The position numbers and the translations under genes are program-made. The notes under the pieces were generated by a model that was not told where the DNA came from, ran no database searches, and saw only the letters and a program-made list of their open reading frames with translations. A stretch of 64,000 bases of DNA from an uncultured delta proteobacterium (GTDB lineage Bacteria > Myxococcota_A > Polyangia > Palsa-1104), in contig CAWAWS010000039.1 in assembly GCA_963785725.1 (NCBI GenBank), forward strand, positions 723,850-787,849. The letters are read 5' to 3'. Every line of letters starts with the position of its first letter. Within the stretch, counting starts at the first letter, position 1. Shown here piece after piece: positions 4,699 to 58,721 of this stretch.

Positions 4699-4725
4699 TT
4701 ATCGGCGGAACGTTCGAAAAGTTGC
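4699..4725 (-). promoter_or_regulatory. sigma28/FliA-like promoter, copy 1 (GCAACTTT-N11-GCCGATAA)
   Basis: Minus strand reads gcaacttt tcgaacgttcc gccgataa, ~44 nt upstream of the DUF4157 ATG. The same motif precedes the two other toxin genes. Confidence 0.75.
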
Positions 4726-4892
4726 TTCCTATTTGGCGCTGCCGCTCGCTGTGATCTCGGTTTCAGCGCGCGGCCGTGTCGCGCCACGGCCGTGGCCGAA
4801 CGCGCGATAGATTCGTGAGCTATTACGATGGCTTGCTTGGGTGTCGCGGAGGCTGTCGAGCGGCGGTGACGAGCGCCGCCGGAGCGGCGTGG

Positions 4893-5588
4893 CTAGATGC
4901 CGACGCTGCCGATCTGCTCGTAGGCCGAGCGCAGCCAGATCTTGACGCGCTGACGCTCGAGGAGGCTGAGGCTCTTGGTGTCGCTGTCGCTCTTGTGCTT
5001 GGCGGCCCAGAAGCTGGTGCTGGCGGCGTCGATCTTGGCGATGACGACCTCGTGCAGCCGCTTGAGCACGATGATCTTGGCGCCCAGCTCGAGCGCGCGT
5101 TCGCGCAGACCCGAGTCCTCGAAGACGTCGAAGTTGTCGCCGCGCAGCTGGTTGAGGACGATCGTGTATTGCAGGCGCGCGCCGAAGCGATCGAACAGCT
5201 TCTTCAGCAGCTCCACCGAATCGCGACCCGAGTCCATGACGTGCCAGTAACGGACGGTGAAGTCGTGGTCGCCGGCGAGCTCGAGCACGCCCGAGTCGTC
5301 CATCCAGCGCGCCAGCGCGTCCTGTGTCTGCGCGGCCAGGTCGACGAGGATGCGCTTGTCGCGATCGGCGGTCGCGGCTTCGACGATCGCGTCCAAGCTC
5401 TCGTAGCGATCGACCACGATCGGCGAGGCGTAGTCGGCGTAGAAGCGCAGCAAGGAGCCGTGCGAGCGATCGGTGTCGAAGCCCAAGAACGGAATGCTCT
5501 CGTCGATGAGGTACTGCGCGACGACCCGCGCCATGACCGACTTGCCGACTCCGCCCTTCTCGCCGCCGATGAGATGAATGTGGCCCAT
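4893..5588 (-). CDS. MinD/ParA-family P-loop protein (MobD-like mobilization protein family)
   Basis: IHLIGGEKGGVGKS deviant Walker A, FDTDRSH, ILVDLAAQ. Confidence 0.8.
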   Translation of the reverse strand: MGHIHLIGGEKGGVGKSVMARVVAQYLIDESIPFLGFDTDRSHGSLLRFYADYASPIVVDRYESLDAIVEAATADRDKRILVDLAAQTQDALARWMDDSGVLELAGDHDFTVRYWHVMDSGRDSVELLKKLFDRFGARLQYTIVLNQLRGDNFDVFEDSGLRERALELGAKIIVLKRLHEVVIAKIDAASTSFWAAKHKSDSDTKSLSLLERQRVKIWLRSAYEQIGSVGI

Positions 5589-5730
5589 GTGCGGCACATT
5601 TAGGGGGCAGGCCGAGAAAAAACGCTAGGAAAAGCTGCGCGCTGTTGCCGAGAATTCGCCGGAAGTTTCAAGCGTGTATCGCGATGATTCGGCGCCGCGC
5701 CGTCGACCCGATGCAGTCGCGCCCGCGAAG

Positions 5731-6627
5731 TCAGCGCGTCAGCGCGACGACGAACTCGAGGAAGGCGCGCAGCTTGGCCGAGTCGCGCTGCGGCGCGTGG
5801 TACGCGTACAGCGGATAGGTCTCGTCGGACCATTCGGGCAACACTTGCACGAGCCGGCCGTCGGCGAGCAGCGTGCGCGCATAAGGCTCGATGAGCTGCG
5901 TCACGCCCTGTCCGCCGAGGCAGGCGGCGAGCAGCGAGCCGGAGTCGCTCACCTGCAAGCGGCCGGCGGCGTTGACCGCGACCACCTTCTTGCCGCGCAC
6001 GAACTCCCAGGCGAAGGCGCTGCCCGTCGCCGGATTGCGCATGAGGACGCACTCGTGCTGCTCGATGTCGCGCGGCTTGCGCGGCGTTCCATGGCGCGCG
6101 AGGTAGTCGGGCGCGGCGCAGGTGATGATGCGCGTGCGCAAGAGCAGCCGCGCCTTGAGCGACGACGGCTCGGGGAAGCCGAAGCGGACGGCGGCGTCAA
6201 AGCCGTCGCTGACGAGGTCGCCCAGCCGATCGCGGACCGCAATGTCGACGAACAGCTGCGGATGGCGCGCCAAGAACGGCTGAATGCGCGGCGTGAGCAC
6301 GAACTGCCCGATGCCGGCGTCGACGTTGACGCGCAGCCGGCCGCGAATCTGCGTCGACGCGTCGGCGGCCTCGCTGGTGGCGTCGGCGATCGCGGCCAGG
6401 TGCGGCGCGATGGCGGTGTAGAAGCGGCGGCCTTCGTCGGTGAGCACGATGGCGCGGACGGTGCGATGGAAGATGCGCACGCCGACGCGCTCCTCGAGGC
6501 GGGCGATGGCGCGGCTGACGGCCGATTGCGTGAGCCCGAGCGCCTCGCCGGCGCGCACGAAGCTGCCGGCCTCGACGACGGCGCCGAGGAGCGCGAGGCC
6601 TTCCAACGACCGCCTGTCAACGCTCAT
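5731..6627 (-). CDS. LysR-family transcriptional regulator
   Basis: VVEAGSFVRAGEALGLTQSAVSRAIARLEERVGVRIFHRT HTH. Divergent from the NmrA/SDR genes. The start may instead be at 6642. Confidence 0.95.
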   Translation of the reverse strand: MSVDRRSLEGLALLGAVVEAGSFVRAGEALGLTQSAVSRAIARLEERVGVRIFHRTVRAIVLTDEGRRFYTAIAPHLAAIADATSEAADASTQIRGRLRVNVDAGIGQFVLTPRIQPFLARHPQLFVDIAVRDRLGDLVSDGFDAAVRFGFPEPSSLKARLLLRTRIITCAAPDYLARHGTPRKPRDIEQHECVLMRNPATGSAFAWEFVRGKKVVAVNAAGRLQVSDSGSLLAACLGGQGVTQLIEPYARTLLADGRLVQVLPEWSDETYPLYAYHAPQRDSAKLRAFLEFVVALTR

Positions 6628-6735
6628 GAGACCTACTTTCATGCATGTCGAGGCTTCCGAGTATGCACGTGCGGCAGTCTCGGCGAGGCGGCAATCTCAC
6701 CTACCACTAGTCCAACCGAGCGAGGCTGAATACGC

Positions 6736-7620
6736 ATGATCGTCGTCACCGCACCCACCAGCAACATCGGCCGCCAGGTCCTCGAGAATGTTTTGCGCGG
6801 CAACGAAGCCGTCCGCGTCATCGCGCGCGATCCGGCGCGCTTGCCGGCGGCGACGCGGGCGCGCGTCGAGGTCGTGACCGGCTCGCACGGCGACGCCGAC
6901 GTCGTCGAGCGCGCGTTCGCCGGCGCGCAGTCGGTCTTCTGGCTGGTGCCGCCGAATCTGCGCGCGCCCAGCGTTTTGGCCGCGTATGTCGACTTCACGC
7001 GACCGGCGTGCGCCGCTTGGCGCCGCCACGGCGTCGCGCGCGTCGTCGGCGTGTCGGCGCTCGGGCGCGGCGTGGTCGAGCGCGCCGGGCTCGTCAGCGC
7101 GGCCTTGGCGATGGATGATCTCATCGCCGGCAGCGGCGTCGCTTATCGCGCGCTGACCCTGCCGTCGTTCATGGAGAATATCCTGCGCCAGGTGGAGCCG
7201 ATTCGCAGTCGCGGGCTGTTCTTCGGGCCGATCGCCAGCCAGCTGAAGGCGCCGACCTGCGCCACGCGCGACATCGCCGCGGTCGCCGCCAAGCTGCTGC
7301 TCGATCACACGTGGAGCGGCAACGGCAGCGCGCCCGTGCTCGGGCCCGAGGATCTGTCGTTCGACGAGATGGCGCAGATCATGTCGGAGGTGCTCGGCAA
7401 GACGGTGCGCTACGAGCAGCTCTCGAGCGCGGCGTTCGCGGCGCGGCTCGGCGAGCAGGGCGCCTCGCCGGCGATGATCGCGGGCATGGTCGACATGATG
7501 ACGGCCAAGAACGCCGGGCTCGACAACGCCGAGCCGCGCACCCGCGAAAACACGACGCCGACGAGCTTCCGGCAGTGGTGCACGGAGATCCTGAAGCCGG
7601 CCGTCGCCCTGAATCTTTAA
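6736..7620 (+). CDS. NmrA-like NAD(P)H-binding protein
   Basis: MIVVTAPTSNIGRQV Rossmann-like start, FMEN, ATRDIAAVAA, GPEDLS. Confidence 0.9.
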   Translation: MIVVTAPTSNIGRQVLENVLRGNEAVRVIARDPARLPAATRARVEVVTGSHGDADVVERAFAGAQSVFWLVPPNLRAPSVLAAYVDFTRPACAAWRRHGVARVVGVSALGRGVVERAGLVSAALAMDDLIAGSGVAYRALTLPSFMENILRQVEPIRSRGLFFGPIASQLKAPTCATRDIAAVAAKLLLDHTWSGNGSAPVLGPEDLSFDEMAQIMSEVLGKTVRYEQLSSAAFAARLGEQGASPAMIAGMVDMMTAKNAGLDNAEPRTRENTTPTSFRQWCTEILKPAVALNL

Positions 7621-7695
7621 CCAACCACGCTAAATATTAACCAATGGGTTAAGTGGTTGCGATGCGCCGGTCAATGAACGAATAGGAGACGAGAG

Positions 7696-8451
7696 ATGCA
7701 GCTCAGTGGCAATACGATCCTCATAACCGGCGGGACGAGCGGCATTGGACGGGCGCTCGCCGAGGCCTTTCATCAGCGCGGCAATCAGGTGATCATCGCC
7801 GGGCGGCGCCGCGCGCTGCTCGACGAGATCACGGCTGCGCACCCGGGGATGCACGGGCTGCAGGTCGACGTCGACGATCCGCGCGCGCTCGCGGTCTTCG
7901 CGGCGGAGCTTCGGCGGCAGTTTCCCACGCTGAACGTGCTCATCAACAATGCCGGGATCTCGCGACGCGAGGACCTTCGCAACGGTGAGCGTGACGTGGC
8001 CGCGGCGCTGGCGATGATCAACACCAATATCGTGAGCGTCTTGCAGTTGACGGCGGCGCTGTTGCCGCTGCTCGAGCGGCAGCCGCGCGCGACCGTGATG
8101 GCGACGACGTCGGGCTTGGCGTTTCTACCGCTCGCCGATTATCCGACGTACTGCGCGACCAAGGCGTTCCTGCATTCGTGGTTGCAGTCGCTGCGCTCGC
8201 AATTGCGCCAGACGTCGGTGGAGGTGCTCGAGCTCATTCCGCCTTATGTGCAGACCGAGCTGAGTGGGGCGAGCCAGGCGACGGATCCGAATGCCATGCC
8301 GCTGGCAGATTATGTCGCCGAAGTGATGCGGGCGCTGGCGGAGCCGCAGCCGGCGCGCGGGGAGATCCTCGTCGAGCGGGCGGCGGCGCTGCGCTGGGCG
8401 GAGCAGAACGGGCAGTACGATCGGCTGTTCAGCGCGCGCAACGAACGCTGA
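7696..8451 (+). CDS. short-chain dehydrogenase/reductase (DltE-like)
   Basis: TILITGGTSGIG, LINNAG, YCATKA catalytic YxxxK, GGAG RBS. Confidence 0.95.
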   Translation: MQLSGNTILITGGTSGIGRALAEAFHQRGNQVIIAGRRRALLDEITAAHPGMHGLQVDVDDPRALAVFAAELRRQFPTLNVLINNAGISRREDLRNGERDVAAALAMINTNIVSVLQLTAALLPLLERQPRATVMATTSGLAFLPLADYPTYCATKAFLHSWLQSLRSQLRQTSVEVLELIPPYVQTELSGASQATDPNAMPLADYVAEVMRALAEPQPARGEILVERAAALRWAEQNGQYDRLFSARNER

Positions 8452-8564
8452 TTTGAGCTTCGGTGGCGGCGTATCGGGCGTGGATTCGCCAGCTCGAGCG
8501 CGTGGCACAAAGCGTCCGGCCGACTCGATGCCCTCGATGCGCGGCTTCTAATCGTCCACGACGC

Positions 8565-9584
8565 TCAATGCCGGAGCGCGCGCGGCAATACGTACTGCGC
8601 GACATAGGTACGCAGCTTGGCGCGGGTGTCGTCGTCGAGCTGCAGCGTCACGTCGGGCATGATGCGCGAGGCGATCTCGTAAACGACGAAGAGATCGAGC
8701 TGGTGGTGAAAGGCCGAGTCGCTCAGTCGATCGAGCTGCGGCTCGGCCGCGACCTTACCTTTTTGCGTCTGATAGGCGGCGATGAGGTTGGCGAGGCATT
8801 CGTAATCCTGATTGTTGGTCCAGCCGGAGCTCCTCGGCATCTCGCCCAGCCAATAGGCCTTACACATGGCGAAGGCGATCCAGTGCGGCGTTTTGTCCGC
8901 CTCGAGGCGAATGTGCTCGGCGTCGACGCGATAGACGGCGGCGTGCGGCGCGAACGGCTGATCGTAGGGGACGATGCCGAGCCGCGCCGCCTCGCCGTGC
9001 GCGATGCTCAGCGCCGTCGGATTGCGCGGCCGCAACGTCAGCGTGTCGATGAGCGCCTCGCGCGCCTCGTCGAAGCGCATGAGCTTGATGAGCGCGTCCG
9101 CGCGATAGAGGTGGCCGCGATAGTGGTTGGGCGCGGCGGCGACCGCTCGATCGTAGGCCGCCAACGCCTCGGTCGGCTGCGCCGCGGCCAGGAAACAGTC
9201 GCCGATGTAGAGATCGAGGAACCAGGACGACGGCGAGAGGCGCTTGGATTCCTCGTATTTCTTGCGCGCGCCGTCCCAATCCTTGGCCTTGAACAGCCGT
9301 TCGGCGTCGGCGAGCGCCGGCTTGGCGGGCGCGGCCACCTCGCCGCAATCGACGAGCTGGCGCTTGCCGGCGACGACGCGGACGTCGGGGCAGTCGCGCG
9401 CGTGCCCTTCGGGCCACAGCGCCGCCGCGCTCTTGAGCTCGCCTCCGGCCGGCAGCTCCGCCACTTTATAGGTGATCTTCGAGCGCTCCATCGCCGCTTG
9501 ATAGTCGGCCAGCGTGTGACCGGGGCTCTCGGCCCAGGCGACGCTCGAGGTCAACAGAACGGCGATCGTCCACGGCGCATGCAT
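8565..9584 (-). CDS. secreted TPR-containing protein
   Basis: Signal peptide (TIAVLLTSSVAWA) and TPR-like helices (EALAAYDRAVAAAPNHYRGHLYRADAL). Confidence 0.8.
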   Translation of the reverse strand: MHAPWTIAVLLTSSVAWAESPGHTLADYQAAMERSKITYKVAELPAGGELKSAAALWPEGHARDCPDVRVVAGKRQLVDCGEVAAPAKPALADAERLFKAKDWDGARKKYEESKRLSPSSWFLDLYIGDCFLAAAQPTEALAAYDRAVAAAPNHYRGHLYRADALIKLMRFDEAREALIDTLTLRPRNPTALSIAHGEAARLGIVPYDQPFAPHAAVYRVDAEHIRLEADKTPHWIAFAMCKAYWLGEMPRSSGWTNNQDYECLANLIAAYQTQKGKVAAEPQLDRLSDSAFHHQLDLFVVYEIASRIMPDVTLQLDDDTRAKLRTYVAQYVLPRALRH

Positions 9585-9626
9585 GGGATGACTTTACCGC
9601 CGTTGGGTTAGAATTTTCGCCTCCGC

Positions 9627-9653
9627 TGTCGATTGGCGCGCGCCGCGTTCGTA
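9627..9653 (+). promoter_or_regulatory. ECF42-type promoter (TGTCGA-N17-CGTA)
   Basis: tgtcga ttggcgcgcgccgcgtt cgta directly upstream of a YciI/ECF42 remnant. Confidence 0.5.
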
Positions 9654-9680
9654 TAGAAGCCGAAAGAGAGGCGCTTCCCC

Positions 9681-9956
9681 ATGAAACTGTATCTATTGAG
9701 CGTGGTCGAGCCCGCTGGTCCGCTGCCGCCGCCAGAATTCCTGCAGAGCGTGATGCGCGACGTCGAAGTCTTCCGCGAAGCGCTGGACCTCGACGGCTAC
9801 TACCTGTTCCACGCCATTCGCGCCGACCTGTTGCGACGGCTGGGGCGCGATGTCGAGGCGGCGCGCGCGTACGAGGCGGCGCTGGCGCGCACCGACAACG
9901 CCGCCGAGCGCGACCTCTTGCGGCGTCGACGCGCGGCGCTCGATTCGCTATCGTGA
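9681..9956 (+). pseudogene. in-frame deletion fusion of a YciI/DGPF protein N-terminus to the C-terminal TPR tail of an ECF42-type sigma factor
   Basis: First ~33 aa (MKLYLLSVVEPAGPLPPPEFLQSVMRDVEVF) resemble YciI N-termini. The rest (LDLDGYYLFHAIRADLLRRLGRDVEAARAYEAALARTDNAAERDLLRRR) is the typical end of ECF42/DUF6596 sigma factors. Confidence 0.7.
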
Positions 9957-9960
9957 GCGC

Positions 9961-11592
9961 ATGATCCGCCTGCTCGTCGTCTTGCTCGCGCTCGTGCCGT
10001 CGCTGGCTGTGGCCGATCCGTCGTCGGTGCGGCTCGGCCGGATCGACTTCCCGGTCACCGGTCCCGAAGCGGCGCGCCAACACTTCGTTCGCGGCATGCT
10101 GGCCATGCACTCGTTCTGGTACGACGAGGCGCACGACGAGTTTCTGGCGGCGACCCGAGCCGCGCCCGCGTTCGCGATGGGCTATTGGGGCGACGCGCTC
10201 TCGTATTATCACCCGGTTTGGTCGCAGGAGAACCTCGTGGCGTCGCGCGCCATCATGGCGCAGCTGCCGCCCAATGCGCCGCTGACCGAGCGCGAGCGCG
10301 ACTTCATCGCGGCGGCGAAGATCCTGTTCGGCGAAGGCGATCGCGAGACGCGTTGGCGCGACTACGCCGCGGCGCTCGGCAAGCTGCACGCGAAGTTCCC
10401 CAAAGACGACGAAGCGGCCACGCTCTATTCGGTGGCGCTGCTCGGCACCGCCCGCCGAGACGGCAGCTTTCGCCCGTTCGCCGAGGCGGCGGCGCTGTCG
10501 CTCGACGTGCTCGCGCGCAATCCGAATCATCCCGGCGCCGCGCACTACGTCATTCATGCGTTCGACAATCCCGAGCATGCGATTCTGGCGCTGCCGGCGG
10601 CGCGTCGCTACGCGCAGATCGCGCCCGAGGCGTTCCACGCGCTGCATATGCCGTCGCATATCTTCGTGCAGCTCGGCATGTGGGAGGACGCGCAGTCGTC
10701 CAATGAAGCGTCATGGGCGGCCTCGATCGCGGCGGCCACGAAGAGGCACCTCGATACCAGCTATTACGACTTCCACAGTCTCGAGTGGCTGATGTCGATT
10801 ACGTTCGAGCGCGGTCAGCGGAGACATGCGGAAGAGGTGCTGCAGCGCGGGCGAGACGCGCTCGTGCGCTCACAGGATCCCGATCGCATGCCGCTCGTCG
10901 TCGGGCGGATGGCGGCGGAATATATGCTGACGACGGGCGATTGGACGCGCATGGACGAGCTCTTGGCGCCACTGTCGACCGTCGAGGCCTCGGTCGCGCG
11001 CTCGACGACGCAGGCCAATATGCCCGGCCCCGCCTGTCACGTCGCGGTCTCGGCGCGGCGCGCGGCGGCGGAAGCGCAGGCGCTGCTGGCGTTCGCGCAC
11101 GGCGAAGCGGCGGCGGCGCGGCAAGATGCCGCGCTCGTCGACAAGAGCCGGCAGGCGCTCGTCGCCGACGTGGCCAAGATGGACAAGGACGCGGCGGACG
11201 ACTGGCAGGTCTACGCGGTCATCCTCGAGGCGCGCTCGGCCGAGCTGCACGCGCGGCCCAAAGACGCGGTCGCGGCGCTGCGTCGGGCGATCGCGCTCGA
11301 GGAGCGCTGGCCGGCTTCGGGCCCGGCCGGCGCGATCACGGCGCGCGAACGGCTGGGCGAGCTGTTCTTACGACAAGGCCGCGCCGCCGACGCGCTCGCG
11401 GAATTCGCGCGTTCGCTCGAGATACATCCGCGACGAAGCCGTTCGCTGCTCGGCGCCGCGCGCGCGGCGGCGCTCGTCAAGCGCGAGTCGGCGCGCGACT
11501 ATTATCGGCAGCTGGCCGCCAATTGGTCGAACGCCGATCAGGATTATCCCGGGTTCCACGAAGCGTTCGACGGAGTTCCAGCGCTGGAATGA
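9961..11592 (+). CDS. secreted TPR-rich protein
   Basis: Signal peptide MIRLLVVLLALVPSLAVA. LGRIDFP...F.RG...HSFWY, NPNHPGAAHYVIHAFD and HALHMPSHIF family motifs. Confidence 0.85.
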   Translation: MIRLLVVLLALVPSLAVADPSSVRLGRIDFPVTGPEAARQHFVRGMLAMHSFWYDEAHDEFLAATRAAPAFAMGYWGDALSYYHPVWSQENLVASRAIMAQLPPNAPLTERERDFIAAAKILFGEGDRETRWRDYAAALGKLHAKFPKDDEAATLYSVALLGTARRDGSFRPFAEAAALSLDVLARNPNHPGAAHYVIHAFDNPEHAILALPAARRYAQIAPEAFHALHMPSHIFVQLGMWEDAQSSNEASWAASIAAATKRHLDTSYYDFHSLEWLMSITFERGQRRHAEEVLQRGRDALVRSQDPDRMPLVVGRMAAEYMLTTGDWTRMDELLAPLSTVEASVARSTTQANMPGPACHVAVSARRAAAEAQALLAFAHGEAAAARQDAALVDKSRQALVADVAKMDKDAADDWQVYAVILEARSAELHARPKDAVAALRRAIALEERWPASGPAGAITARERLGELFLRQGRAADALAEFARSLEIHPRRSRSLLGAARAAALVKRESARDYYRQLAANWSNADQDYPGFHEAFDGVPALE

Positions 11593-11638
11593 GTCGTTGG
11601 CGTTTACAGCGGACGCGCAAAATCTCCGCGTGAAAGCG

Positions 11639-11685
11639 CGCAATCGATATCGGCCGCGGACGATTCCGCTCCGATATCGATTGCG
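11639..11685. terminator. 15-bp perfect inverted repeat between convergent genes (probable bidirectional terminator)
   Basis: cgcaatcgatatcgg (11639-11653) / ccgatatcgattgcg (11671-11685). Confidence 0.6.
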
Positions 11686-11693
11686 GTGGCGAT

Positions 11694-12719
11694 TTAGTCG
11701 GACTCGGTGAACTGGATGAACGGCGACGAGCCGCCGCCGGTCGAGCAGCTGCCGAGCTTGAGGTTATTGGTTTCGCCCGTGGTGCCGTCATTCGCGACGC
11801 AGCTGGGGGCGCTCGTCGAGCCGTCCGTCAACGCGATCTTCACGGTGATCGAGGCGCCCTTGTTGAAGACGGCCTCGGAGCCGCCGCCGTCGCCGATGAT
11901 GTTGAACTCGGACGCATTCCACGCCGTCGCCAGGTTCGTGACGGTGTCCGGCTGGTTCGTGCTGAAGGCCTCGCCCTCTGCCGTGAACACGAGCGTGTCG
12001 TTGCCATTGGCTTTGGCCGATCCCGCCATCTTGAAGCCGGACAGATTGCCGATGGCAATGGCCGGGACCGACACGGCGGCGCTGTTCTTGTAGCAGTCGT
12101 TCTCGCCGTCGGAGATGAAGGTGCGGTCGGGGCACTTGCCGATCCCGATCAGCCAATCCTGAATGAAGGCCGACTTCTCATTCGTGGAATAGACGAACTG
12201 CGACCACGACTGGCAGCCGGAGACGCCCTTGCACGCGGCCGTGCCGCTCATGAAGTTCGAGTTGAGCTGGATCGAGTAAGAATTCTTTTCACCGTCGTTG
12301 GTCTCGCTCGTGACGCCGGTGACGGTCGGGAACGTGCCCGTCGATTGCGAGATCAGTCCCGAGGCTTTGGCGGCGAAGTCGTTTCCATTGCCGACGGTGA
12401 AGGGAACATTGGCCTCGTTGCGCGACGGCGCGGGATGGCTGTGGAAGCGGATCGGCGCCTCGCTGCAGCCGATCTTCTCCCACGTCATCGCCGGATAGGC
12501 GGCGTGAAAGCAGCCCTCTTCCGCGGCCGGTGCGCGCACGATGGCCTCGCGCCACACGGCGCGGGCCGACAGCTCTGCGTCGGCCGCCGGCTCGGCGGCC
12601 GCCGGCGAAGCCGAATCCAACGTGGACGATCCACATCCGACGCACGCCGCGCCAAACGCCATCGCGCAAATTGCATTGGGCAACCAGCTGGACCTGCGAA
12701 GGCCGAATTCGGTTTGCAT
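11694..12719 (-). CDS. secreted lipoprotein, beta-rich, possibly thermopsin/glutamic-peptidase-like
   Basis: Lipobox-like ACVGC and a pro-region. Mature part has YSIQLN, WSQFVY and SEFNIIGDGGG motifs. Confidence 0.65.
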   Translation of the reverse strand: MQTEFGLRRSSWLPNAICAMAFGAACVGCGSSTLDSASPAAAEPAADAELSARAVWREAIVRAPAAEEGCFHAAYPAMTWEKIGCSEAPIRFHSHPAPSRNEANVPFTVGNGNDFAAKASGLISQSTGTFPTVTGVTSETNDGEKNSYSIQLNSNFMSGTAACKGVSGCQSWSQFVYSTNEKSAFIQDWLIGIGKCPDRTFISDGENDCYKNSAAVSVPAIAIGNLSGFKMAGSAKANGNDTLVFTAEGEAFSTNQPDTVTNLATAWNASEFNIIGDGGGSEAVFNKGASITVKIALTDGSTSAPSCVANDGTTGETNNLKLGSCSTGGGSSPFIQFTESD

Positions 12720-13133
12720 GGCTTACCATCCTCTCGATCGAGCGAGACCGTGCCCTCAAGACGCGTCGTCACCCGCAGCGAGCGGGCGCCGGGCGCAGCA
12801 GAGAAACGGCGAGGGCGCGCACCGTTCGCCGCGAGCGCAGAGCAACGCGCGCGCCATCCCGACGAGGCGCGGTGAGCGCCGGCTAGGTGGGCGGAATCGA
12901 GACAGATTTCGCGGAGTCGGCGATCGTAGTCAAACCCACGAAGAAATTCGGAGTCGTGGCATTCCGCGCCTCTAGCGGCGGGAAAAAATCGACGCGCATG
13001 TAGACAACGGTGAACGCGTTCCCTGCAGTGCGCGTCTCGCGATCGTGGTCCGACGGCGCGCGCCGCTGAGCGAGTCTCCGTCGCTGAGCGCGCGCATTCG
13101 TCGGCTGCACACGATCGTGTGAGGTCGCTGCTC

Positions 13134-13177
13134 CCACGCGCGCGTCGCGATCGCGGCGATTTGGGACGCGCGCGTGG
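13134..13177. repeat. 13-bp perfect inverted repeat in a long intergenic region
   Basis: ccacgcgcgcgtc / gacgcgcgcgtgg. Confidence 0.5.
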
Positions 13178-16985: not shown

Positions 16986-17047
16986 GCGAATGCCCGAAAG
17001 CGCGCCTATGGCGCTATGACGACAATGCAGTCGGCTCTAAGCGAGAC

Positions 17048-46699: not shown

Positions 46700-46701
46700 C
46701 G

Positions 46702-50201: not shown

Positions 50202-50214
50202 GAGACGCTGGATC

Positions 50215-51036
50215 ATGCGCTCGATTCGTTTCGTACTGATTGTCGCCCTCATACTGCTTGGTAGTCGCGCCTACGCCACCACGCCGAGTCAGTTCTCGGT
50301 GCAGGGCGTGTTGCGTGACAGCGGCGGCAAGCTTCAGTCCATGATGGTCAACGTCACCGTCAACCTCTACTCCGCGTCGACGGGAGGAGCACCGCTCTCG
50401 ACCCCCGTCAATGCGCTGTCGGTCATGGCAGTCAACGGCTTGTTCACTGTTACCATCACCGCCGATCAAGCGCTTCAGACGGTCTTGGCGACACCGCCGA
50501 TCTGGCTGGAGCTAGTCGTCGGGAACGACACCTTTCCCAGGCAGTTGATCACCGCAGATGTTTACGCGCTTCAATGCGGAGCCGCCGACGTCGCCAATAG
50601 CCTTGCTCCGTCGGTGACCATCAACGCCGCGACCCAGATCACCGGTGTGCTCCCAGTGGCAAACGGTGGTACAGGTGCCGGCGGAGTCGAAGCATGGCAC
50701 GAGATTCCCGACTCGGCGCTCGCCTTCGGATGGGTTTGGTACAGCACTCCGACTGCTGATTTCACGACTCCCGCCTTTTACAAAAATCCATTTGGCGAGG
50801 TTCGCTTGAAGGGGCTGATCCGTAATGGAACAGCCGTCGGCACTATCTATCAGCTACCAGCCGGATACGCGCCCGCGCATACAACAATCATTTCGACTAC
50901 TGGCAATACGACGGCCCCAGCGCTTTGCACGATCTATATCTACAACACGGGCAACATACAGTTGCAGTCAAACTGCCCCACCGGGGCGGGCAACTGGGTT
51001 TCGCTCGACGGAATCACCTTCCGCGCCGGATCGTAA
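50215..51036 (+). CDS. secreted protein with C-terminal phage tail-fibre/receptor-binding-like domain
   Basis: Signal peptide; QGVLRD...NGLFTV...WLELVV...PRQ N-domain; GEVRLKGLIRNG...QLPAGYAP...WVSLDGITF C-domain. Confidence 0.7.
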   Translation: MRSIRFVLIVALILLGSRAYATTPSQFSVQGVLRDSGGKLQSMMVNVTVNLYSASTGGAPLSTPVNALSVMAVNGLFTVTITADQALQTVLATPPIWLELVVGNDTFPRQLITADVYALQCGAADVANSLAPSVTINAATQITGVLPVANGGTGAGGVEAWHEIPDSALAFGWVWYSTPTADFTTPAFYKNPFGEVRLKGLIRNGTAVGTIYQLPAGYAPAHTTIISTTGNTTAPALCTIYIYNTGNIQLQSNCPTGAGNWVSLDGITFRAGS

Positions 51037-51188
51037 TACTCGGCTGCGCGCCAGTTGCGGCGCCATTCCGCTGTTTGTTCAGAACGGCGGCGGCAAGGAA
51101 TCTGTCTCGACGTCGCCCGAAGCTCGGCCGCCGTAGTAGTCGAAGAACCGCCGCAACCGTGGTAAACGTGACCTCGAGAGAGGGAACG

Positions 51189-51980
51189 ATGGCGGGAACG
51201 ATCGAGGCGCAACTCGTGGCTGAATGGAACGCGGCTGGCATTCTGCCTGGCGACACGGTACTGATTCACAGCAGCATCAAGCGCACGCTCAAGCGGTTGT
51301 TGAAAGCCGGTTTTTCCGTGTCAGCCGACAGCGCCCTACTGTCTTTTCGCGAAGCGGTCGGACCGTCAGGGACGCTGCTGTTTCCTCTGTTCAATTTCGA
51401 CTTCACGAAGGGGACGCCCTTCGACAAGCGGAACACTCCTTCGCATATGGGTGCACTCACTGAGGCGGCGCGTCGAGCGCCCGACGCAGTACGCACCGGC
51501 CACCCCATCTACTCGTTCGCGGTGCTGGGTGCCAAGTCGTCGTGCTTTCGCGACGTCGAGAACTTCAGCGCTTACGGCGCTGACTCTCCGTTCGCACTGC
51601 TCCGCGAGATGGATGGCAAGATCGCCGTTCTCGATCTCCCGGATCAGGACAGCATGACTTTCTATCACCACGTAGAAGAGATGAACGAAGTCCCTTACCG
51701 CTTTCATAAAGTGTTCGAAGGCGATTATATCGATCTCGATGGCAATACGAGCCGTCGCCGCTTTGGTCTATTCGTGCGAAATCTCGAAATGGGCGTCGAG
51801 ACGGACGTGGATCGGATGGGCGAGCTGTTGTGGCAGCAGGGGCTCTATTCTGGCGAACGTCACGGTGTGGGATCCGGGCTACGCGTCATCTCTGCTCGCG
51901 CGATGTTCGACGCGGTCTCGGAAGTGATTCGCACCGGCCGGGCCAAGGACTTCCTGTACAGCATCAAGACCCCCAGTTGA
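51189..51980 (+). CDS. AAC(3)-family N-acetyltransferase
   Basis: GDTVLIHSS, GTLLFPLFN, MGALTE, RTGHPIYSFAVLG, SPFA, TFYHHVEE. Confidence 0.9.
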   Translation: MAGTIEAQLVAEWNAAGILPGDTVLIHSSIKRTLKRLLKAGFSVSADSALLSFREAVGPSGTLLFPLFNFDFTKGTPFDKRNTPSHMGALTEAARRAPDAVRTGHPIYSFAVLGAKSSCFRDVENFSAYGADSPFALLREMDGKIAVLDLPDQDSMTFYHHVEEMNEVPYRFHKVFEGDYIDLDGNTSRRRFGLFVRNLEMGVETDVDRMGELLWQQGLYSGERHGVGSGLRVISARAMFDAVSEVIRTGRAKDFLYSIKTPS

Positions 51981-52135
51981 AGGTTGGAAGTCGCGACGAA
52001 ACATCGATGAGCCGCGGGGCGAGCCAGCATCGCCACCAACCGCGCTTTCGCCGTCGCGACGGACATAGTCGGTGGGTACGGCACCGTTCGTCTCACGCGG
52101 TGCCTTCGTGAAACAGATCAATGCCCGGAGAGGCC

Positions 52136-53434
52136 ATGAGCGAGCACGCTGAAGATTCGACTATCGGACAACAGATGCATGACTTTGCAAAGCTGCTCTG
52201 GCCGATCTGTCGCAGTTTGTCCGGCGATGGCGTGCGGCAAACGCTGCAACTGATCCGAGAGCGATTGCCGGCACTTCAGATTCATGAAGTGCCATCTGGG
52301 ACGAAGTGTTTCGATTGGGAAGTCCCAGACGAATGGAACATCCGCGACGCTTATATCATTGCGCCCGACGGGCAGAAGATCGCCAACTTCAAGACTAATA
52401 ACCTGCACGTGGTTGGCTACTCCACGCCCATCAATGCGGAGATGCCCCTCGAGGAGCTGCGGCCGCACTTGTTCTCCTTGCCCGCGCAGCCGACCGCGAT
52501 TCCCTATATTACGTCCTATTACAAACGCTTTTGGGGATTCTGCATCTCGCACGAGCAACTGACTGCATTGAAGCCTGGCAACTACCGCGTTGTCATCGAC
52601 AGTGAGCACAAAGCCGGCTCGCTTACGTATGGCGATTTGGTCTTACCGGGCGAGACCGAAGACGAGATCTTACTGTCGACCTATGTTTGCCATCCTTCGA
52701 TGGCCAACAACGAGCTGTCCGGTCCCCTCGTGACGCTGGCTCTCGCGCAATGGCTCACGACGTTACCGCGACGCCGCTACACTTACCGCATCTATTTCGG
52801 CCCCGAGACGATCGGCGCCGTCGTCTACCTGAGTCGTCATTTGGAGGCGATGAAGCGAGTTACCCGGGCAGGGTGGGTAGTCACCTGCGTGGGCGATGAC
52901 CGAGCCTATTCGTTCTTGCCGAGCCGAGAAGGCAACACGTTCGCTGATCAGCTGAGCCGACACGTGCTCCGTCACTGCACCCCTGCGCCGAAGGAGTACT
53001 CGTTCCTCGACCGGGGCAGCGACGAGCGTCAGTACTGCAGCCCAGGGGCCGACTTGCCCGTATGTTCCATCATGCGCAGCAAGTATGGCGAGTATCCCGA
53101 GTACCATACTTCGCTCGATGACTTATCGCTGGTCACTCCGTCAGGACTCCTGGGCGGATATCGCATGATAAAGAAGTGCATCGAGTTGGCCGAAGCCAAC
53201 AGATCTTATCGAACGAAACTGCCGTGCGAGCCGCAGTTAGGTAAGCGCGGCCTCTATCCGTCGCTGAGCACCAAAGAGTCGGGCGCAATGGTCAAGACCA
53301 TGATGGATTTCCTGGCGCATTGTGATGGCCACCTCGATTTGCTCGCGATCGCCGAGCGGATTGGCGTCTACGCGCACGAGCTCGCTCCGTTGGCCGAGAA
53401 ACTCACCGGTGCGGGAGTGATCGAGCCGGTCTGA
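52136..53434 (+). CDS. DUF4910 (DUF2172 + peptidase M28-like + wHTH) protein
   Basis: RSLSGDGVRQTL, FDWEVPDEWNI, AIPYITSYY, CHPSMANNELSG, PETIG, GSDERQYCSPG, YPEYHTS. Confidence 0.95.
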   Translation: MSEHAEDSTIGQQMHDFAKLLWPICRSLSGDGVRQTLQLIRERLPALQIHEVPSGTKCFDWEVPDEWNIRDAYIIAPDGQKIANFKTNNLHVVGYSTPINAEMPLEELRPHLFSLPAQPTAIPYITSYYKRFWGFCISHEQLTALKPGNYRVVIDSEHKAGSLTYGDLVLPGETEDEILLSTYVCHPSMANNELSGPLVTLALAQWLTTLPRRRYTYRIYFGPETIGAVVYLSRHLEAMKRVTRAGWVVTCVGDDRAYSFLPSREGNTFADQLSRHVLRHCTPAPKEYSFLDRGSDERQYCSPGADLPVCSIMRSKYGEYPEYHTSLDDLSLVTPSGLLGGYRMIKKCIELAEANRSYRTKLPCEPQLGKRGLYPSLSTKESGAMVKTMMDFLAHCDGHLDLLAIAERIGVYAHELAPLAEKLTGAGVIEPV

Positions 53435-53783
53435 CGCTAGCTGCTGTCGCAGATCGCTCGCCGCGCGGTGGATGTGCTGGAGGATGCACAGTTCTGGGAA
53501 TCGCAGGACGGGAGCCGTGAAAACATCAGAAGGCTACTGGAAACCGATTTGTGATCTTGTGAAGCGGCTCAATTGATGGAGTCGGCTGGCCGCCAGCGAC
53601 GCCACGCAATCATCGCTGGCCTCGTACATGACGACGGCTGCGGCTGCGTCGACGTATGTTCCGCAATCGACGTTGGCCAAGCTTGAGAAGCAGCGCAGAG
53701 CGCCGTCTCGCGCCGTGCCGCGCCCTGCTCACAAATCTGTCGACGGACGGCGATAGGCGCCGGCGTCACACGAACCGCCCCGT

Positions 53784-54812
53784 TTATTTCGCCAGTCGCG
53801 TCTGCGCGCGCGCCGCGCCCGTCGCATCGTTACCGTGAAGATCCAAGTAGCGCTGATAGTGGAACAGCGCGTTAGCCTTATTGCCCTGGTCCCACCAATA
53901 GTCGGCAAAATACAGCTCGGCCGGCGGGTATTTTCCGCGTAGCGACTCGTTCATCGCTGCCAAGAAATCCGGCTGATGCGTCTTCCCCAGCTTATCGTGA
54001 GAAAGTGCTAACCAATAATACAGCTCGGGGATCCCGACAGTCCCCCGCTTTGCGGTCATGAGGCTGTCAACGGCCGCCGAATATTTCCCTACCTTATACA
54101 GACGAATGCCTTCCTGCATATCTAGTGCAATCTGCTCAGGCGTTTTGCTATCGCGCTCAGCACTTGTTCCGAGCCCCGGGATCGATTCAATGAACGCGGT
54201 CATGACCTGTGCGGCGAACACGGGCTTGACCGCGGGCTGTCCCGGCATCAGGAAGCAGAACGCGATCTTGCCATTGCCGCGCGAGCTCACGACAGCATCA
54301 GCCGGGGGCAACGCACTGGGATTTTGGCCCTCGACCGACTTTGCATCATCGAGTTGCATCTGAACTTCGACCCCGGCGCTGCTCGACCAAGCGACGCCCC
54401 AACCGGACGCACCGCAAATCGACGCCGTCCCGTTGCTAGCGCCACGCGAAATCGGCGCATTCTTCGTATGTGTATTCACCCAGCCCACGAGGGACTGGCG
54501 GCGCTTCCCTTCCGCCAGGCTCATCGTGAGGCTGACGGCAGCCACTCCGTCGCCACCATCGCGACGAACGAACGCGCGGTCGAACGGCGGGGGCAACTTC
54601 ACGGCCGCTCCCGGCACGTCGTCCGCGATCGGGATAGTCAGCTCGACATGAGCGCCGCGTAAACCAGTTGTGCACTGCGAAAAGCGAGCGCCTGGCACGC
54701 AACCTTCGAGTGCCTGCCCTAGCACGGAGCTCGCCTCGGCGCGCGCCAGCCTCGAAGTGCCATGCGCCGTGACCATCACAAGACCGCAAAACAAGAGTGC
54801 GCGTTTGCTCAT
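53784..54812 (-). CDS. secreted protein with C-terminal TPR, candidate second immunity/accessory protein
   Basis: Signal peptide, TPR-like end (ALFHYQRYLDL); third gene of the operon headed by the PG hydrolase. Confidence 0.7.
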   Translation of the reverse strand: MSKRALLFCGLVMVTAHGTSRLARAEASSVLGQALEGCVPGARFSQCTTGLRGAHVELTIPIADDVPGAAVKLPPPFDRAFVRRDGGDGVAAVSLTMSLAEGKRRQSLVGWVNTHTKNAPISRGASNGTASICGASGWGVAWSSSAGVEVQMQLDDAKSVEGQNPSALPPADAVVSSRGNGKIAFCFLMPGQPAVKPVFAAQVMTAFIESIPGLGTSAERDSKTPEQIALDMQEGIRLYKVGKYSAAVDSLMTAKRGTVGIPELYYWLALSHDKLGKTHQPDFLAAMNESLRGKYPPAELYFADYWWDQGNKANALFHYQRYLDLHGNDATGAARAQTRLAK

Positions 54813-54833
54813 CTCATTCTCACTTAATGAAGC

Positions 54834-55412
54834 CTAATGCTGGGCACTTGCGGATTTGCCAGCGAAGGTGACTGATTTAAGCATTTGCTCGAAGTCGCTC
54901 TTGGCGCCCGAATAGCTCTCCGCTTTGCAAAGCAAAATAGCGTCGACGATCGTTGTTTGATGTTTTCCCTGTTTGAACTGGAAGGACGCAACGTCTGCGA
55001 CCGCCTTTGGACTCGAGCACTGGGTGACGGTACGGGCGAGCTTGGCGGTTGGCGAACCGATCGGCTGCGCGTCTTCGCAGTCGTTGAATCGGACTGTAGC
55101 CGCACCAATCGCCGCGAATACGTTCTTTTCGCCAGCGGCTTGCTTCGTTCGATTCTGCAGACCAGTCGCGTCGACCGTAAGCTCGCTGCAGCCGTCGGCC
55201 GTGGTGCATTCCTCGCGATCGATTTGGACGACGCATCCGTTGGGGCCGCGAAAGCTGCCGACGCGAACGGCAGCAGCTTTGGGATCGACGGCAACTTTCG
55301 TCCACCCGGCGGGAGGATCGATCATCAGCTTCGGCGCCAGCTCGTCGGCGAGAGATTCCGTCGTCAGACTGACGCTAACGAAGCCGAGGACGAAGAATCC
55401 AAACGTTCTCAT
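54834..55412 (-). CDS. signal-peptide protein, candidate periplasmic immunity protein (PsbP/DcrB-like pattern)
   Basis: MRTFGFFVLGFVSVSL signal; IDPPAGW...DFEQMLKSVTF; overlaps the 3' end of the hydrolase gene. Confidence 0.7.
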   Translation of the reverse strand: MRTFGFFVLGFVSVSLTTESLADELAPKLMIDPPAGWTKVAVDPKAAAVRVGSFRGPNGCVVQIDREECTTADGCSELTVDATGLQNRTKQAAGEKNVFAAIGAATVRFNDCEDAQPIGSPTAKLARTVTQCSSPKAVADVASFQFKQGKHQTTIVDAILLCKAESYSGAKSDFEQMLKSVTFAGKSASAQH

Positions 55413-58398
55413 TGAAGACAAAATGCTTCTTCTCCATGTGGTTGAACGTCGTGCTCTTGGACATCTGATGCTCATGCGCCTTCTCGCTGCCTGCGCCAAT
55501 AGCGGTCACTTCTCGAAGCTGTCCCGTACCTTCGTCGCGGATGACGTCGCTGAGCAACTCGATGTGCCCATGGCCCTCTTCTTTCATGCCGGTCTTCGAG
55601 TTGACGTGCATTCCACCATGCCCATCTTGCCGGAACTTGCCGCGAACGATCACGACATCGCCTGACTGAGCGTTGTGCTCAGGATCCTGAACGACGTCGA
55701 ACCACTGTGCGCCATGCAGTGGCTTCGCGCCTTTGGCAACGGCTTCGATATCGTCGCACATACCATTCACGTCAGGATACTTCACTGTCGGCTCGTGGTT
55801 CTCATCGGAACCCGCCGTCATGAACCCCGATCGGTAAAGGAATTCACCGACGAAGATGTTGCACTTGAAATTGCCGGCGTAACCACCTTTCTTTTCGCCA
55901 CTCTGAAACGCCGGATGACTCAGCTTCTCGTCTTTGATCGAGCCAGCTTGGCCCCACGACGCGTCGCCATCCTTCAATCGCGCCGCCGACAACATCTCGT
56001 CGACATGTTTCTTGCGGTCGACGTCTTCGCCAGCAGGCGCCTCTTTGGATCCCCCAGCCGCTTGCTCCTTCGCTGCCGGTTCTTTGCTTTTCTCTTCTGC
56101 TACGTCGGCGGGCTTATTGACCTGCGCTCCGGCGAGAGCGGCAGCTGCCTTTTGGCCGAGGTCGGTAACCTCACCCTCCAAGCTTTTGTCGTACTCCTCG
56201 ATTTGCTTTTGCGCGTCCTCGACCTTGAGCTCGCCCTTGCCAACTCGACCTGCGAGCTCTACGCCACGCTCTCGCAATCGCTCCGCAACGATATCCCGAT
56301 CCGATTTCCAGAAGGTGACCGTCTCCCAAATCGTCCGCTCGACGTCGTGTTTCTCGTGATGCTCAGGCGGTCCCTTCGCGCTGCCAACGTTGCTCGGTGC
56401 CTTCTCTTTGGCGGGCCCAGCACCGGGCGCAATCTTGGTATTGTCGTGCTGTGCCACAGCCGAACCGGCGCCCTTTCCGCCCTTTGCCGGCGGAACATTG
56501 CCGCGGTAGATCGCCATCACCTTGCTAACGTACTCGTCGTGCTCGAGTAGCGACGGGTTCTCTATCTCCTCTTTCGAGAGACCTCCGTTATGCATTCGGG
56601 CGCATAACATGTACAGCTCGTCGTCCGACTTGGGCAGCTCGACCTTGAAGCGCTTGGCCTGCGCGACGACACGCTTGCGGACGTCTTCGACCTCTTTCTT
56701 GCCAAAGCCGACCGCGCCATCTGCATTGATGGCCTTCGACAGATGCCCTTGTCGACCGCCGGCCGCCTTCATCTGAAACCCGGCCAAGTTCTCGGCCATG
56801 ATTCCCTCGACGCTGCCTTGCTTGCCCTTGTTCATGTAGGCTGCGAGGTCGCCCGGTCCCAACTGAATCCGATCAAAGACGGCCTTGTTGTCGTCATAGA
56901 ACTTGTGCGCGGCTTCCATACGCGCCTTCTTATTCTTGTCGCCCACCAGCGCAGCATGGCTGGAGCGATATTCGCGGATCAGGCGACGGAACTCGATGCT
57001 GCCGATGAGACGATCGAGATCGCCTTCGCCTAGCCCGGTCGAAGTCGTCCAGGCATCGCGATGCTTGGCGATGAACCGCTCGGGATCGGTCTTGGCCAGC
57101 TCGACTTCGGCCGCATTCCACTGCAGCGCCTTCTGAGCGCGTCCCTGTTCCGCTTCACCCTTCGAACCTGACCGGCCCACCAACGCGGAATAGTACTGGG
57201 CGACAGCAGCGGTCTTCTGCTTCAAATCCGCGACTTCACTCTCGCTGAAGCCGTACTTTGCGCGCAGATCCGGATCATGCTCGAGCATGTCGATCGCACT
57301 GCTGGCGACCGTTTGGAATCGACCATACGACCCTTCGACCCCCGATGCGTTGCGAAGGTCGGTTCCGACGACACCGTCCTTATCAGGAGCCGCATTTCCG
57401 GATTCCTTGACGCCGATAGCGTAGACGAATCGATCCCAGCTGCTCCCTGACGCAGGCGGCGCCGCTGCAGAACCAGCGTTGGCGCGAGCATCGGCTGCTG
57501 GCTTCGCCGGGGCCGATGCCAACGACGACGCGTTCGCTGTGACGATAGCCTTGAGCTTGTGGCCCGCCGCGGCCTTGGACGCGGCGCCCTTGTGGCCGAG
57601 CGAATGCTTCTTCTCGTCGGACTTCGGTGGCGCGGAGTCCGCGGCAACAGCGGGCTTGGCCGCCGGTGCCGCGGCGTCTCCAGCGCTCTTTTCGTCGGCC
57701 TGTTCTGCGACAGGTTCCGCGGAGTGGTCAGCCGGCTGTTCGACGGCGGCTTCAGCTTTCTCGTTGCCGCTGTTTCCCGCATCGACTTTTAGGGCGCCAA
57801 ACAAGTCGTCGAGCTCCGCCGCTTGCGTAGGCTTCGGCTCGGAATCCGTGGCGCCTGCCCCCGAGTCAGAAGATTCGCCGGCTGTTGCCGCCGGAGCGCT
57901 GCTGACGTGCTCGGTGGTTTCGGCCTGCGCTAATGCAGCATCCGCCTTGCCAGCATCGCCTTCGGAGGAGGGGACCGCCTCTTTTTCTTCCTGTGCAGGC
58001 TTTCCCGTGTCGGAATCGACGGCTTCCACCGGCGCCGCCGCTGCGCTCTCAGGCTCCTTGGAGCTGGGAACCGTCGTGGGTGCGGCCGTCGCGCGATCCG
58101 TCGCAAATGCATCGTCGGTCTTCTGGTCCGGCTCCTGCGCCCATTCGGGCGTGAGGATACCGTCCGCCGACCCCGCTGCGGCTGGAGCCGAATCAGCGCT
58201 GCCAGCCTTTGCCTCGGCTTGGGCGCGACGGCGTTGCTGGAATTTCCGGTAGAGCGCGTTCGCGGCCGCGACGTTGCCCTTCGTGACGGAAAGGAACAGG
58301 GTCATCGGCGAATTCGTTGGCCCGGCGTCAACGTCAGCCGACGCGGGCTCGCGACCGCCGTCAATCGTACCCTTATTTTTCTGGTCGAGCTCGCCCAT
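55375..58398 (-). CDS. large putative peptidoglycan-hydrolase effector: disordered N-terminus, lysozyme-like domain, C-terminal NlpC/P60/CHAP-like domain
   Basis: AIGVKESG...YGRFQ...ARMHNGG...YVSKV; KCNIFV...SGDVVI...GHGHIE; no Sec signal; ATG 58398 lies below the shared promoter motif. Confidence 0.7.
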   Translation of the reverse strand: MGELDQKNKGTIDGGREPASADVDAGPTNSPMTLFLSVTKGNVAAANALYRKFQQRRRAQAEAKAGSADSAPAAAGSADGILTPEWAQEPDQKTDDAFATDRATAAPTTVPSSKEPESAAAAPVEAVDSDTGKPAQEEKEAVPSSEGDAGKADAALAQAETTEHVSSAPAATAGESSDSGAGATDSEPKPTQAAELDDLFGALKVDAGNSGNEKAEAAVEQPADHSAEPVAEQADEKSAGDAAAPAAKPAVAADSAPPKSDEKKHSLGHKGAASKAAAGHKLKAIVTANASSLASAPAKPAADARANAGSAAAPPASGSSWDRFVYAIGVKESGNAAPDKDGVVGTDLRNASGVEGSYGRFQTVASSAIDMLEHDPDLRAKYGFSESEVADLKQKTAAVAQYYSALVGRSGSKGEAEQGRAQKALQWNAAEVELAKTDPERFIAKHRDAWTTSTGLGEGDLDRLIGSIEFRRLIREYRSSHAALVGDKNKKARMEAAHKFYDDNKAVFDRIQLGPGDLAAYMNKGKQGSVEGIMAENLAGFQMKAAGGRQGHLSKAINADGAVGFGKKEVEDVRKRVVAQAKRFKVELPKSDDELYMLCARMHNGGLSKEEIENPSLLEHDEYVSKVMAIYRGNVPPAKGGKGAGSAVAQHDNTKIAPGAGPAKEKAPSNVGSAKGPPEHHEKHDVERTIWETVTFWKSDRDIVAERLRERGVELAGRVGKGELKVEDAQKQIEEYDKSLEGEVTDLGQKAAAALAGAQVNKPADVAEEKSKEPAAKEQAAGGSKEAPAGEDVDRKKHVDEMLSAARLKDGDASWGQAGSIKDEKLSHPAFQSGEKKGGYAGNFKCNIFVGEFLYRSGFMTAGSDENHEPTVKYPDVNGMCDDIEAVAKGAKPLHGAQWFDVVQDPEHNAQSGDVVIVRGKFRQDGHGGMHVNSKTGMKEEGHGHIELLSDVIRDEGTGQLREVTAIGAGSEKAHEHQMSKSTTFNHMEKKHFVFNENVWILRPRLR

Positions 58399-58449
58399 CA
58401 CAATCCCTAGCTCTTTAGAGTATATAAACGGCGCACGCCGCCATATAGG

Positions 58450-58476
58450 TTTTCGGCACGACCTCGAAAAAGTTGC
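58450..58476 (-). promoter_or_regulatory. sigma28/FliA-like promoter, copy 2 (GCAACTTT-N11-GCCGAAAA)
   Basis: Minus strand gcaacttt ttcgaggtcgt gccgaaaa. Confidence 0.7.
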
Positions 58477-58694
58477 TTCCAACAGAGGCGCGAAAGTTCG
58501 ACTTCCGCCGGAGCCGCATGCCGCAGTGGAGTGAGGTGAGGTGACCGCCATCACCGCGCCGGGAACAAAGCTCCGTTGACGAACCCGGTCGCCATGACTC
58601 AGGACAGCTGATTGCGATGTGTCAGCACGGTCGGTCGAATTGTAACGCTCGATTCCGTTTCCCCCGAGCCCCACTGATTTCTTGCGGGTACATG

Positions 58695-58721
58695 GCAACT
58701 TTTCTTCAGTTTCGCCGATAA
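58695..58721 (+). promoter_or_regulatory. sigma28/FliA-like promoter, copy 3 (GCAACTTT-N11-GCCGATAA)
   Basis: gcaacttt tcttcagtttc gccgataa, 17 nt before ATG 58739. Confidence 0.75.

Follow-up and report, generated by a model that had tools for sequence, protein, structure and literature searches.

A promoter-like motif with a sigma-28-type -10 and an altered -35 precedes contractile injection, effector-like and DNA-uptake genes in an uncultured myxobacterium

The closest described relatives of the element reported here are the flagellar sigma-28 (class 3) promoters; in the available part of a structural study, the open complex of Pseudomonas aeruginosa sigma28 has GCCGATAA at positions -15 to -8 (PMC12784957). 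In Myxococcus xanthus, a type III secretion system that lacks a needle (T3SS*) is required for prey lysis, and the available portions of two papers treat its effectors as hypothetical (PMC12075869, PMC10849154). For extracellular contractile injection systems (eCIS), a review, in the part accessible to us, calls the regulation of loci that lack local regulatory genes unclear (PMC10598620). Here, we describe a bipartite motif from a 64,000-nucleotide stretch of DNA of an uncultured delta proteobacterium (GCA_963785725.1, contig CAWAWS010000039.1, positions 723,850 to 787,849; hereafter the window), together with FliA2, a candidate sigma factor for it. From the sequence comparisons below, we think it probable that the motif is a promoter for FliA2, a non-flagellar sigma factor of the type of M. 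xanthus MXAN_2437, and that FliA2 co-switches eCIS genes, their DUF4157 cargo, and DNA-uptake and recombination genes in this lineage.

An earlier note on this DNA had proposed a sigma28-type promoter with an altered -35 before three toxin-like genes. We confirmed the three copies, each with an 11-nt spacer, at 4699-4725 (-), 58450-58476 (-) and 58695-58721 (+); no other exact match occurs in the window, and the number expected from 100 dinucleotide shuffles is 0. The distances to the start codon are 43, 48 and 17 nt, where 48 is counted to a GTG (the next ATG lies at 51). In the whole genome (G000; 8.9 Mb, 47 contigs, 88% complete), the exact pattern occurred 14 times, compared with 0, 0, 1 and 0 times with spacers of 9, 10, 12 and 13 nt; the motif is thus not confined to toxin genes. 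An iterated matrix found 65 sites scoring at least 24 bits, versus 0-3 at seven wrong spacings, and a 3-Mb Markov-2 control sequence gave no site at 20 bits. Once two one-base-longer sites were added, the total came to 67 strong sites at 25 bits. A matrix built from 64 sites of other genomes, picked with a G000-derived pattern, recovered 64 of the 65 sites, and 63 of the 65 lay outside predicted genes.

The site consensus was GCAACT-N15-CGAT(A/G)A or, in a longer form, GCAACTT(T/C)T ... (G)(C)CGAT(A/G)A, in which a 16-nt stretch separates AAC from CGA. Its -10 is the GCCGATAA of sigma-28 promoters, with a near-invariant CGATAA core, and its -35 is GCAACT, not the TAAAG/TCAAG type of sigma-28. 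The motif shares the register AA[C/G]-N16-CGA with the flagellar motif of the same genome, CTCAAGT-N13-GYCGATG. Judged by its sequence and placement, the motif is very likely a promoter, and the proposal of a sigma28-type promoter with an altered -35 is supported by the way it behaves.

Among the 67 sites, 31 precede one hairpin repeat (see below) and 36 do not. Twelve of these 36 are followed by eCIS, DUF4157 or effector-like genes: four by eCIS structure genes recognized by Pfam/NCBIfam (a sheath-tube operon, a separate tube gene, a VgrG-type OB gene and a PAAR gene), four by DUF4157 genes, two by other effector-like genes, and two by uncharacterized genes that lie next to an eCIS-type ATPase or a DUF4157 gene; baseplate genes were not located. 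A further eight stand before genes for DNA uptake or recombination (comEC, comF, a comEA-like gene, radA, recN, recD2, recQ and a dGTPase gene), and the competence genes comEC, comF and comEA-like share the site. Among the seven DUF4157 genes of G000, four carry the site, as eCIS structural genes do, and three lack it. The earlier note had spoken of an effector regulon: effector-like genes are indeed enriched behind the motif, and the set is not effector-specific, given the DNA-uptake and recombination genes, the 31-copy repeat and the three DUF4157 genes without a site. For argH, acetolactate synthase, yggS, HAD, cdnL, flgM, motA, cheA and integron integrase, the label is what we take the gene to be, recognized by eye.

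Two targets deserve separate description. A 3985-aa protein behind the motif (C33, L026:6037-17994) has two DUF4157 domains and a C-terminal HATPase_c domain, with two motif-bearing homologues in a related genome (G003). The first eCIS sheath gene (C13, L012:9414-10655) is in several frames in G000 and whole in G003, G021, G022 and G024, so the frame breaks may be assembly errors.

We then followed the motif across the window's order, counting in each search the best 26-30 matches, not every match, and leaving out comEC L040 (cut at a contig start), dprA L401 (cut), FliA2 L121 (split match) and, among the comEC loci of the phylum sample, L246 and L253 (both cut) and L233 (from G000 itself). 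The strict pattern occurred in 22 of 41 related genomes, and reversed controls gave 1 hit. Sites with an in-frame start codon 6-9 nt further on were present in 28 of 29 comEC loci and 24 of 26 comF loci (26 of 26 ignoring frame), versus 8/29 and 3/26 for wrong-spacing controls with the start condition dropped; of the targets tested, these two genes were conserved best. The sole comEC locus without the site belongs to G018 (97% complete), where FliA2 was not found. The site also stood before the sheath operon in G003, G021, G022 and G024, covering all three families, and before homologues of the tube, PAAR, VgrG-type, DUF4157, recN, recQ, recD2 and radA genes among 40 G003/G004 regions and 11 other loci. 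Given the -15 to -8 position of GCCGATAA in the part of the structural study cited above (PMC12784957), +1 is predicted seven bases further on. Start codons stand at this predicted +1, from which we infer that many targets would be transcribed as leaderless messages beginning ∼7 nt after CGATAA.

The best candidate for a reader is FliA2, the second FliA-like gene of G000 (C15:309600-310355), two genes from sctJ and present in 40 of 42 genomes. Its closest relatives are labelled Polyangia or Myxococcales, which marks G000 as a myxobacterium, and its best PDB hits are FliA and WhiG-type proteins; TIGR02479 is its best family, at 153.8 bits, which does not reach the cut-off of 189.6. The -10 contacts D66, Y76, R82 and R97 of P. 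aeruginosa sigma28 align with D58, F68, R74 and R89 of FliA2, the R97-equivalent position not being kept in two Myxococcaceae FliA2 sequences. The -35 reader Q228, on the other hand, maps to an invariant R221, and the region 4.2 helix reads SKSWxSR in FliA2 versus SESRVSQ in FliA. A same-strand motif lay within 4 kb of FliA2 at 25 of 80 named loci, versus 2/80 and 2/80 for wrong spacings, standing before the first gene of the operon and before an SctI-like gene behind it. The FliA2 operon of M. eversor equals MXAN_2434-2439 in gene order, length and domains (567/432/396/837/417/819 bp, from the available part of PMC9548883 Table S1B), matched by order and length and not by alignment to DK1622; FliA2 is therefore of the MXAN_2437 type and not SigF (MXAN_0785). 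Taken together, FliA2 is likely the reader of the motif. A FliA/WhiG-like sigma with altered -35 specificity, as the earlier note had expected, was thus found in the genome, with a changed region 4.2 and beside a T3SS gene. The third FliA-like gene (C17:120437) keeps the flagellar-type helix and groups with canonical FliA.

Outside the window's order, five Myxococcaceae genomes gave 43 matches to the motif, versus 2 in controls. Most of the 32 Myxococcaceae sites that we read precede proteins with Ser/Thr/Pro-rich N-termini, and amidase, NlpC/P60, muramidase-like, wall-binding, M91, calpain or endonuclease domains were found in 8 of 23 scanned downstream proteins. In M. xanthus preying on S. 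meliloti, MXAN_2434, 2435 and 2438 go up (log2 1.16, 0.69 and 0.67 at 2 h); the rows obtained from the table with these values (PMC9548883 Table S2A) do not include MXAN_2437. A literature search that covered few subscription papers gave no description of the motif promoter or of a regulon or function for MXAN_2437, and no main-text mention of MXAN_2437. In the phylum sample, a comEC site was present in 4/7 genomes with a FliA2-clade sigma versus 1/20 without (Fisher p 0.009, uncorrected for kinship and partly circular); comF had a site in 0/2 genomes with a divergent sigma and 0/11 without FliA2. FliA2 is a phylum-level offshoot of sigma-28. Its two predicted sets of targets are T3SS* and lytic genes, in Myxococcaceae and in other lineages that bear the cluster, and eCIS and DNA-uptake genes, in the window's order. 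As a separate observation, comEC of the five Myxococcaceae (L214-L218) is divergent from a carD/cdnL-like gene, and between the two genes lies a conserved CACAAA-N16-CGATA, which departs from the motif by one base, ∼130 nt before comEC.

Several observations weigh against FliA2 as the common switch of these genes. Neither target class fits 16 of the 36 non-repeat sites (one site is within a HAD gene, and another is without a same-strand gene), and the extended -10 GC is weak (G 0.68 and C 0.81 in non-repeat sites; 0.59 and 0.33 in repeat sites). dprA, with the site in 1/29 loci, was rejected as a member of the competence set. The dispersed T3SS export genes of G000 have no site upstream, so that of the T3SS-like or eCIS-like export machines suggested by the earlier note, the one linked here is the eCIS and not the T3SS. 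These genes (SctV-, SctR/S-, SctN- and SctJ-like; C7:204881, C6:213232-216523, C7:479758, C15:308370) are scattered singly amid housekeeping genes. Among the 84 sigma genes of G000, only one for an extracytoplasmic function (ECF) sigma has a site within 500 nt upstream. Within the order to which the window belongs, no site was found upstream of the FliA2 gene (0/29 at 12 bits), and none of the 24 loci closest to the G000 FliA2 has the motif, which argues that FliA2 is not autoregulated in the G000 lineage. Two genomes carry sites with no such sigma found: G104 (99% complete), with sites before comEC and comF, 10 in total and no FliA2-clade sigma found, and G037 (73% complete), with a comF site and FliA2 not found. 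All 10 sites of G104 (loci L269-L284) follow the variant TGTCCGATAA, with an invariant TGTC before CGA(T/A)AA. In Myxococcaceae, comF has no site (0/4) and comEC no clear site (0/5), so the competence link is lineage-restricted. Of the seven FliA2 sequences in the phylum contrast, four were already part of the alignment used for searching, and related genomes do not count as independent; at 12 bits, a comF site was present in 2/10 other FliA2-bearing genomes.

We therefore weighed other readers and other programmes. The layout AAC-N16-CG resembles that of usual ECF promoters. An ECF sigma, such as that at C15:72312-72944 of G000 or another conserved one, could read the promoter instead: the C15 gene is the single sigma gene with an upstream site, G104 has the motif and lacks FliA2, and the accessible part of one study finds ECF autoregulation frequent (10.1101/2019.12.11.873521). 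However, the C15 clade was found in only 2/23 genomes of family f3, where the comEC site persists; 30 loci of the clade showed 1 imperfect site upstream, several having a different GAACTT...GCGT motif; and the motif clusters around FliA2 as described. A scan of genome contigs with the C15 ECF as query found no relative; the gene was rejected together with its two paralogues, being patchy in distribution and showing no autoregulation across their orthologues. We consider an ECF reader quite improbable. A second conserved bipartite motif, GAACTTT-N14-TTGCGT, was seen upstream of one ECF subclade (L102 = G000 C14:148812; L089, L094, L100, L101, L103) and is probably the promoter of another ECF. 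A reading by the flagellar FliA, with the sites as an enlarged flagellar late regulon, draws on the sigma28 consensus of the -10 and on a flagellar FliA in G000 above the TIGR02479 cut-off. Yet the flagellar contig C29 holds no correctly spaced site at 20 bits, flgM, motA and chemotaxis genes carry the other motif, canonical FliA loci had the site in 0/24 cases (with shorter, 1.5-kb flanks), and a flagellar FliA above cut-off exists in 9/42 genomes, with none found in G001, G003 and G004, whose site counts are 15, 25 and 27. With flagellar genes using a different motif and FliA-less congeners keeping their sites, this reading is largely refuted and scarcely credible. The same contig holds a full flagellar gene cluster (C29:36347-67524; L001, L005), in a myxobacterium, and the flagellar motif also stands before chemotaxis and response-regulator genes.

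Alternatively, FliA2 could read the motif as part of a response to DNA damage or stress, combining repair genes with tailocin-like particles, and not of predation-linked competence. The recN, radA, recQ and recD2 targets, the scarcity of sites at dprA, and the site-bearing integron-integrase-like gene and two Y1-transposase-like genes of relatives speak for such a programme, as do Pseudomonas tailocins, which are SOS-induced according to the available part of the review (PMC10598620). Against it, comEC and comF, which were conserved best of all targets tested, serve DNA uptake; the site is not a palindrome and is placed like a promoter, unlike a LexA operator; and the targets seen in Myxococcaceae are T3SS and lytic genes, with MXAN_2434, 2435 and 2438 rising in predation in the part of the data available (PMC9548883). 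We regard a stress programme as unlikely and prefer FliA2 as a switch for weapons and DNA uptake.

The 31 remaining G000 sites precede a genome-specific 60-nt hairpin repeat, in tandem at two places (for example, L009, C4:57784-58129 and 71935-72260; L325, C7:212114-212200). All 31 copies, found with a profile built from promoter-linked copies, have the site intact. The 3' strand of the repeat is invariant, and the 5' strand varies without compensation. Spacers of repeat-linked sites were about as unlike as unrelated ones (0.36 versus 0.31), suggesting that the promoter is under selection. Four congeners have neither site nor element at one orthologous gap, and the 18-mer core gave five single two-mismatch hits only in 41 other genomes. 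No Rfam family scored above chance in the one 20-kb locus searched, no Y1 transposase was found in G000, and the invariant strand gave 5 matches at 2 mismatches, without pattern, among 7730 start regions. Three folded copies had z-scores of -0.92, -1.41 and +1.04, the last two on imprecise boundaries. We read the repeat as a young element that may give a short RNA. Genes of mobile-element type also lie behind the motif in relatives (L377 in G021, L284 in G104, L373 in G010, L370 in G004); these are integron-integrase-like, Y1-transposase-like and GxxExxY-like, and of the Y1-transposase-like genes only L284 has a Pfam match.

In the window itself, the three sites and the genes around them are as follows.

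4699..4725 (-): promoter-like site 1, GCAACTTT-N11-GCCGATAA, before DUF4157 gene 1; 36.3 bits with the genome-trained matrix.
2484..4655 (-): DUF4157 gene 1 (an eCIS core family), 723 aa; PF13699 E 9.5e-31, above the Pfam cut-off.
1707..2471 (-): gene downstream of DUF4157 gene 1, no family match; candidate immunity gene, by position only.
58450..58476 (-): promoter-like site 2, GCAACTTT-N11-GCCGAAAA, before the 1008-aa gene; 31.9 bits.
55375..58401 (-): 1008-aa protein, of low complexity at the N-terminus; an unconfirmed lysozyme-like domain is possible in the middle and a CHAP-like one, also unconfirmed, at the C-terminus.
58695..58721 (+): promoter-like site 3, GCAACTTT-N11-GCCGATAA, divergent from site 2, before DUF4157 gene 2; 32.7 bits.
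58739..60480 (+): DUF4157 gene 2, in two overlapping frames (58739-60175, 59659-60480); PF13699 E 7.5e-30, above cut-off.
60490..61145 (+): HEAT-repeat gene in two frames after DUF4157 gene 2; candidate immunity gene, by position only.

Of the three toxin-like labels given earlier, the two DUF4157 assignments hold, and the third, a peptidoglycan hydrolase, lacks support: the 1008-aa protein had no Pfam or NCBIfam hit, and its Atlas feature hits to SLT-like and CHAP/amidase-like clusters (0.92) are leads only. DUF4157 gene 1, whose homologue in G003 carries the same site, may act as a toxin, a role taken from its family; its C-terminal 418 aa gave no Pfam match and no family was found. The second frame of DUF4157 gene 2 matches ADP-ribosyl cyclase (PF02267 E 6.3e-5) below cut-off. 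To the right of the toxin-like pair lie IS66-type transposase remnants (62294-64000; PF13007 match at 62842-63543), and to its left an aminoglycoside 3-N-acetyltransferase-family gene followed by a DUF4910/DUF2172 gene (50925-53434).

In the model that we favor, the SKSWxSR helix in region 4.2, replacing SESRVSQ, would move the preferred -35 from TCAAG to GCAAC and leave the -10 contacts unchanged. FliA2 may have begun as the late-substrate sigma of a myxobacterial T3SS and, in lineages with dispersed T3SS genes, later have taken in eCIS and competence genes, and its output would be to kill and then take up DNA. Such a kill-and-transform physiology has, on present sequence evidence, about an even chance of being right. 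Equally balanced is a broader proposal, that the MXAN_2437-type sigma would be a dedicated sigma-28 offshoot of Myxococcota and a master switch for contact weapons, marking T3SS* effectors in Myxococcus, rewired in the window's order to eCIS and DNA uptake as a Gram-negative predator's competence sigma, with its promoter captured by small mobile elements, including the 31-copy hairpin RNA, which would thereby be expressed in the same state. By marking the T3SS* operon together with lytic genes scattered elsewhere, this promoter would yield a finite list of effector candidates and a one-gene test (MXAN_2437) in a tractable strain. The motif and FliA2 also offer a candidate regulator for eCIS loci without local regulatory genes, and they hint that uncultured myxobacteria couple competence to killing by means of a sigma factor, not by activators.

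Compared with known systems, the motif shares with the part of the flagellar sigma-28 description available to us the -10 (GC)CGATAA, the spacing, the predicted +1 and the contact residues of regions 2.3-3.0, whereas the flagellar -35 is TCTAAAG/CTCAAGT and that of the motif GCAACT, and the targets here are eCIS and com genes and no flagellar genes (PMC12784957). As flagellar sigma-28 does, FliA2 would control secreted type III substrates in lineages with an intact cluster. The needleless T3SS* cluster of M. xanthus (MXAN_2434-2464), with its sigma gene MXAN_2437, has the operon layout seen in M. eversor, with the motif before the first gene; in G000, by contrast, the T3SS genes are dispersed and without the site. 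In streptococci, ComX is an alternative competence sigma. FliA2 resembles ComX and the Firmicute SigH in that comEC, comF, comEA, radA and lytic genes would lie behind promoters of an alternative sigma, and differs in sigma family and motif, in its Gram-negative host and in its apparent origin from a T3SS cluster. Finally, the TfoX/QstR system of Vibrio cholerae, as set out in the available part of the source, likewise joins a contractile killing machine and DNA-uptake genes in one programme (PMC6237807); there, activators control a type VI secretion system, whereas here a predicted sigma-28-family promoter precedes an eCIS, with dprA mostly outside.

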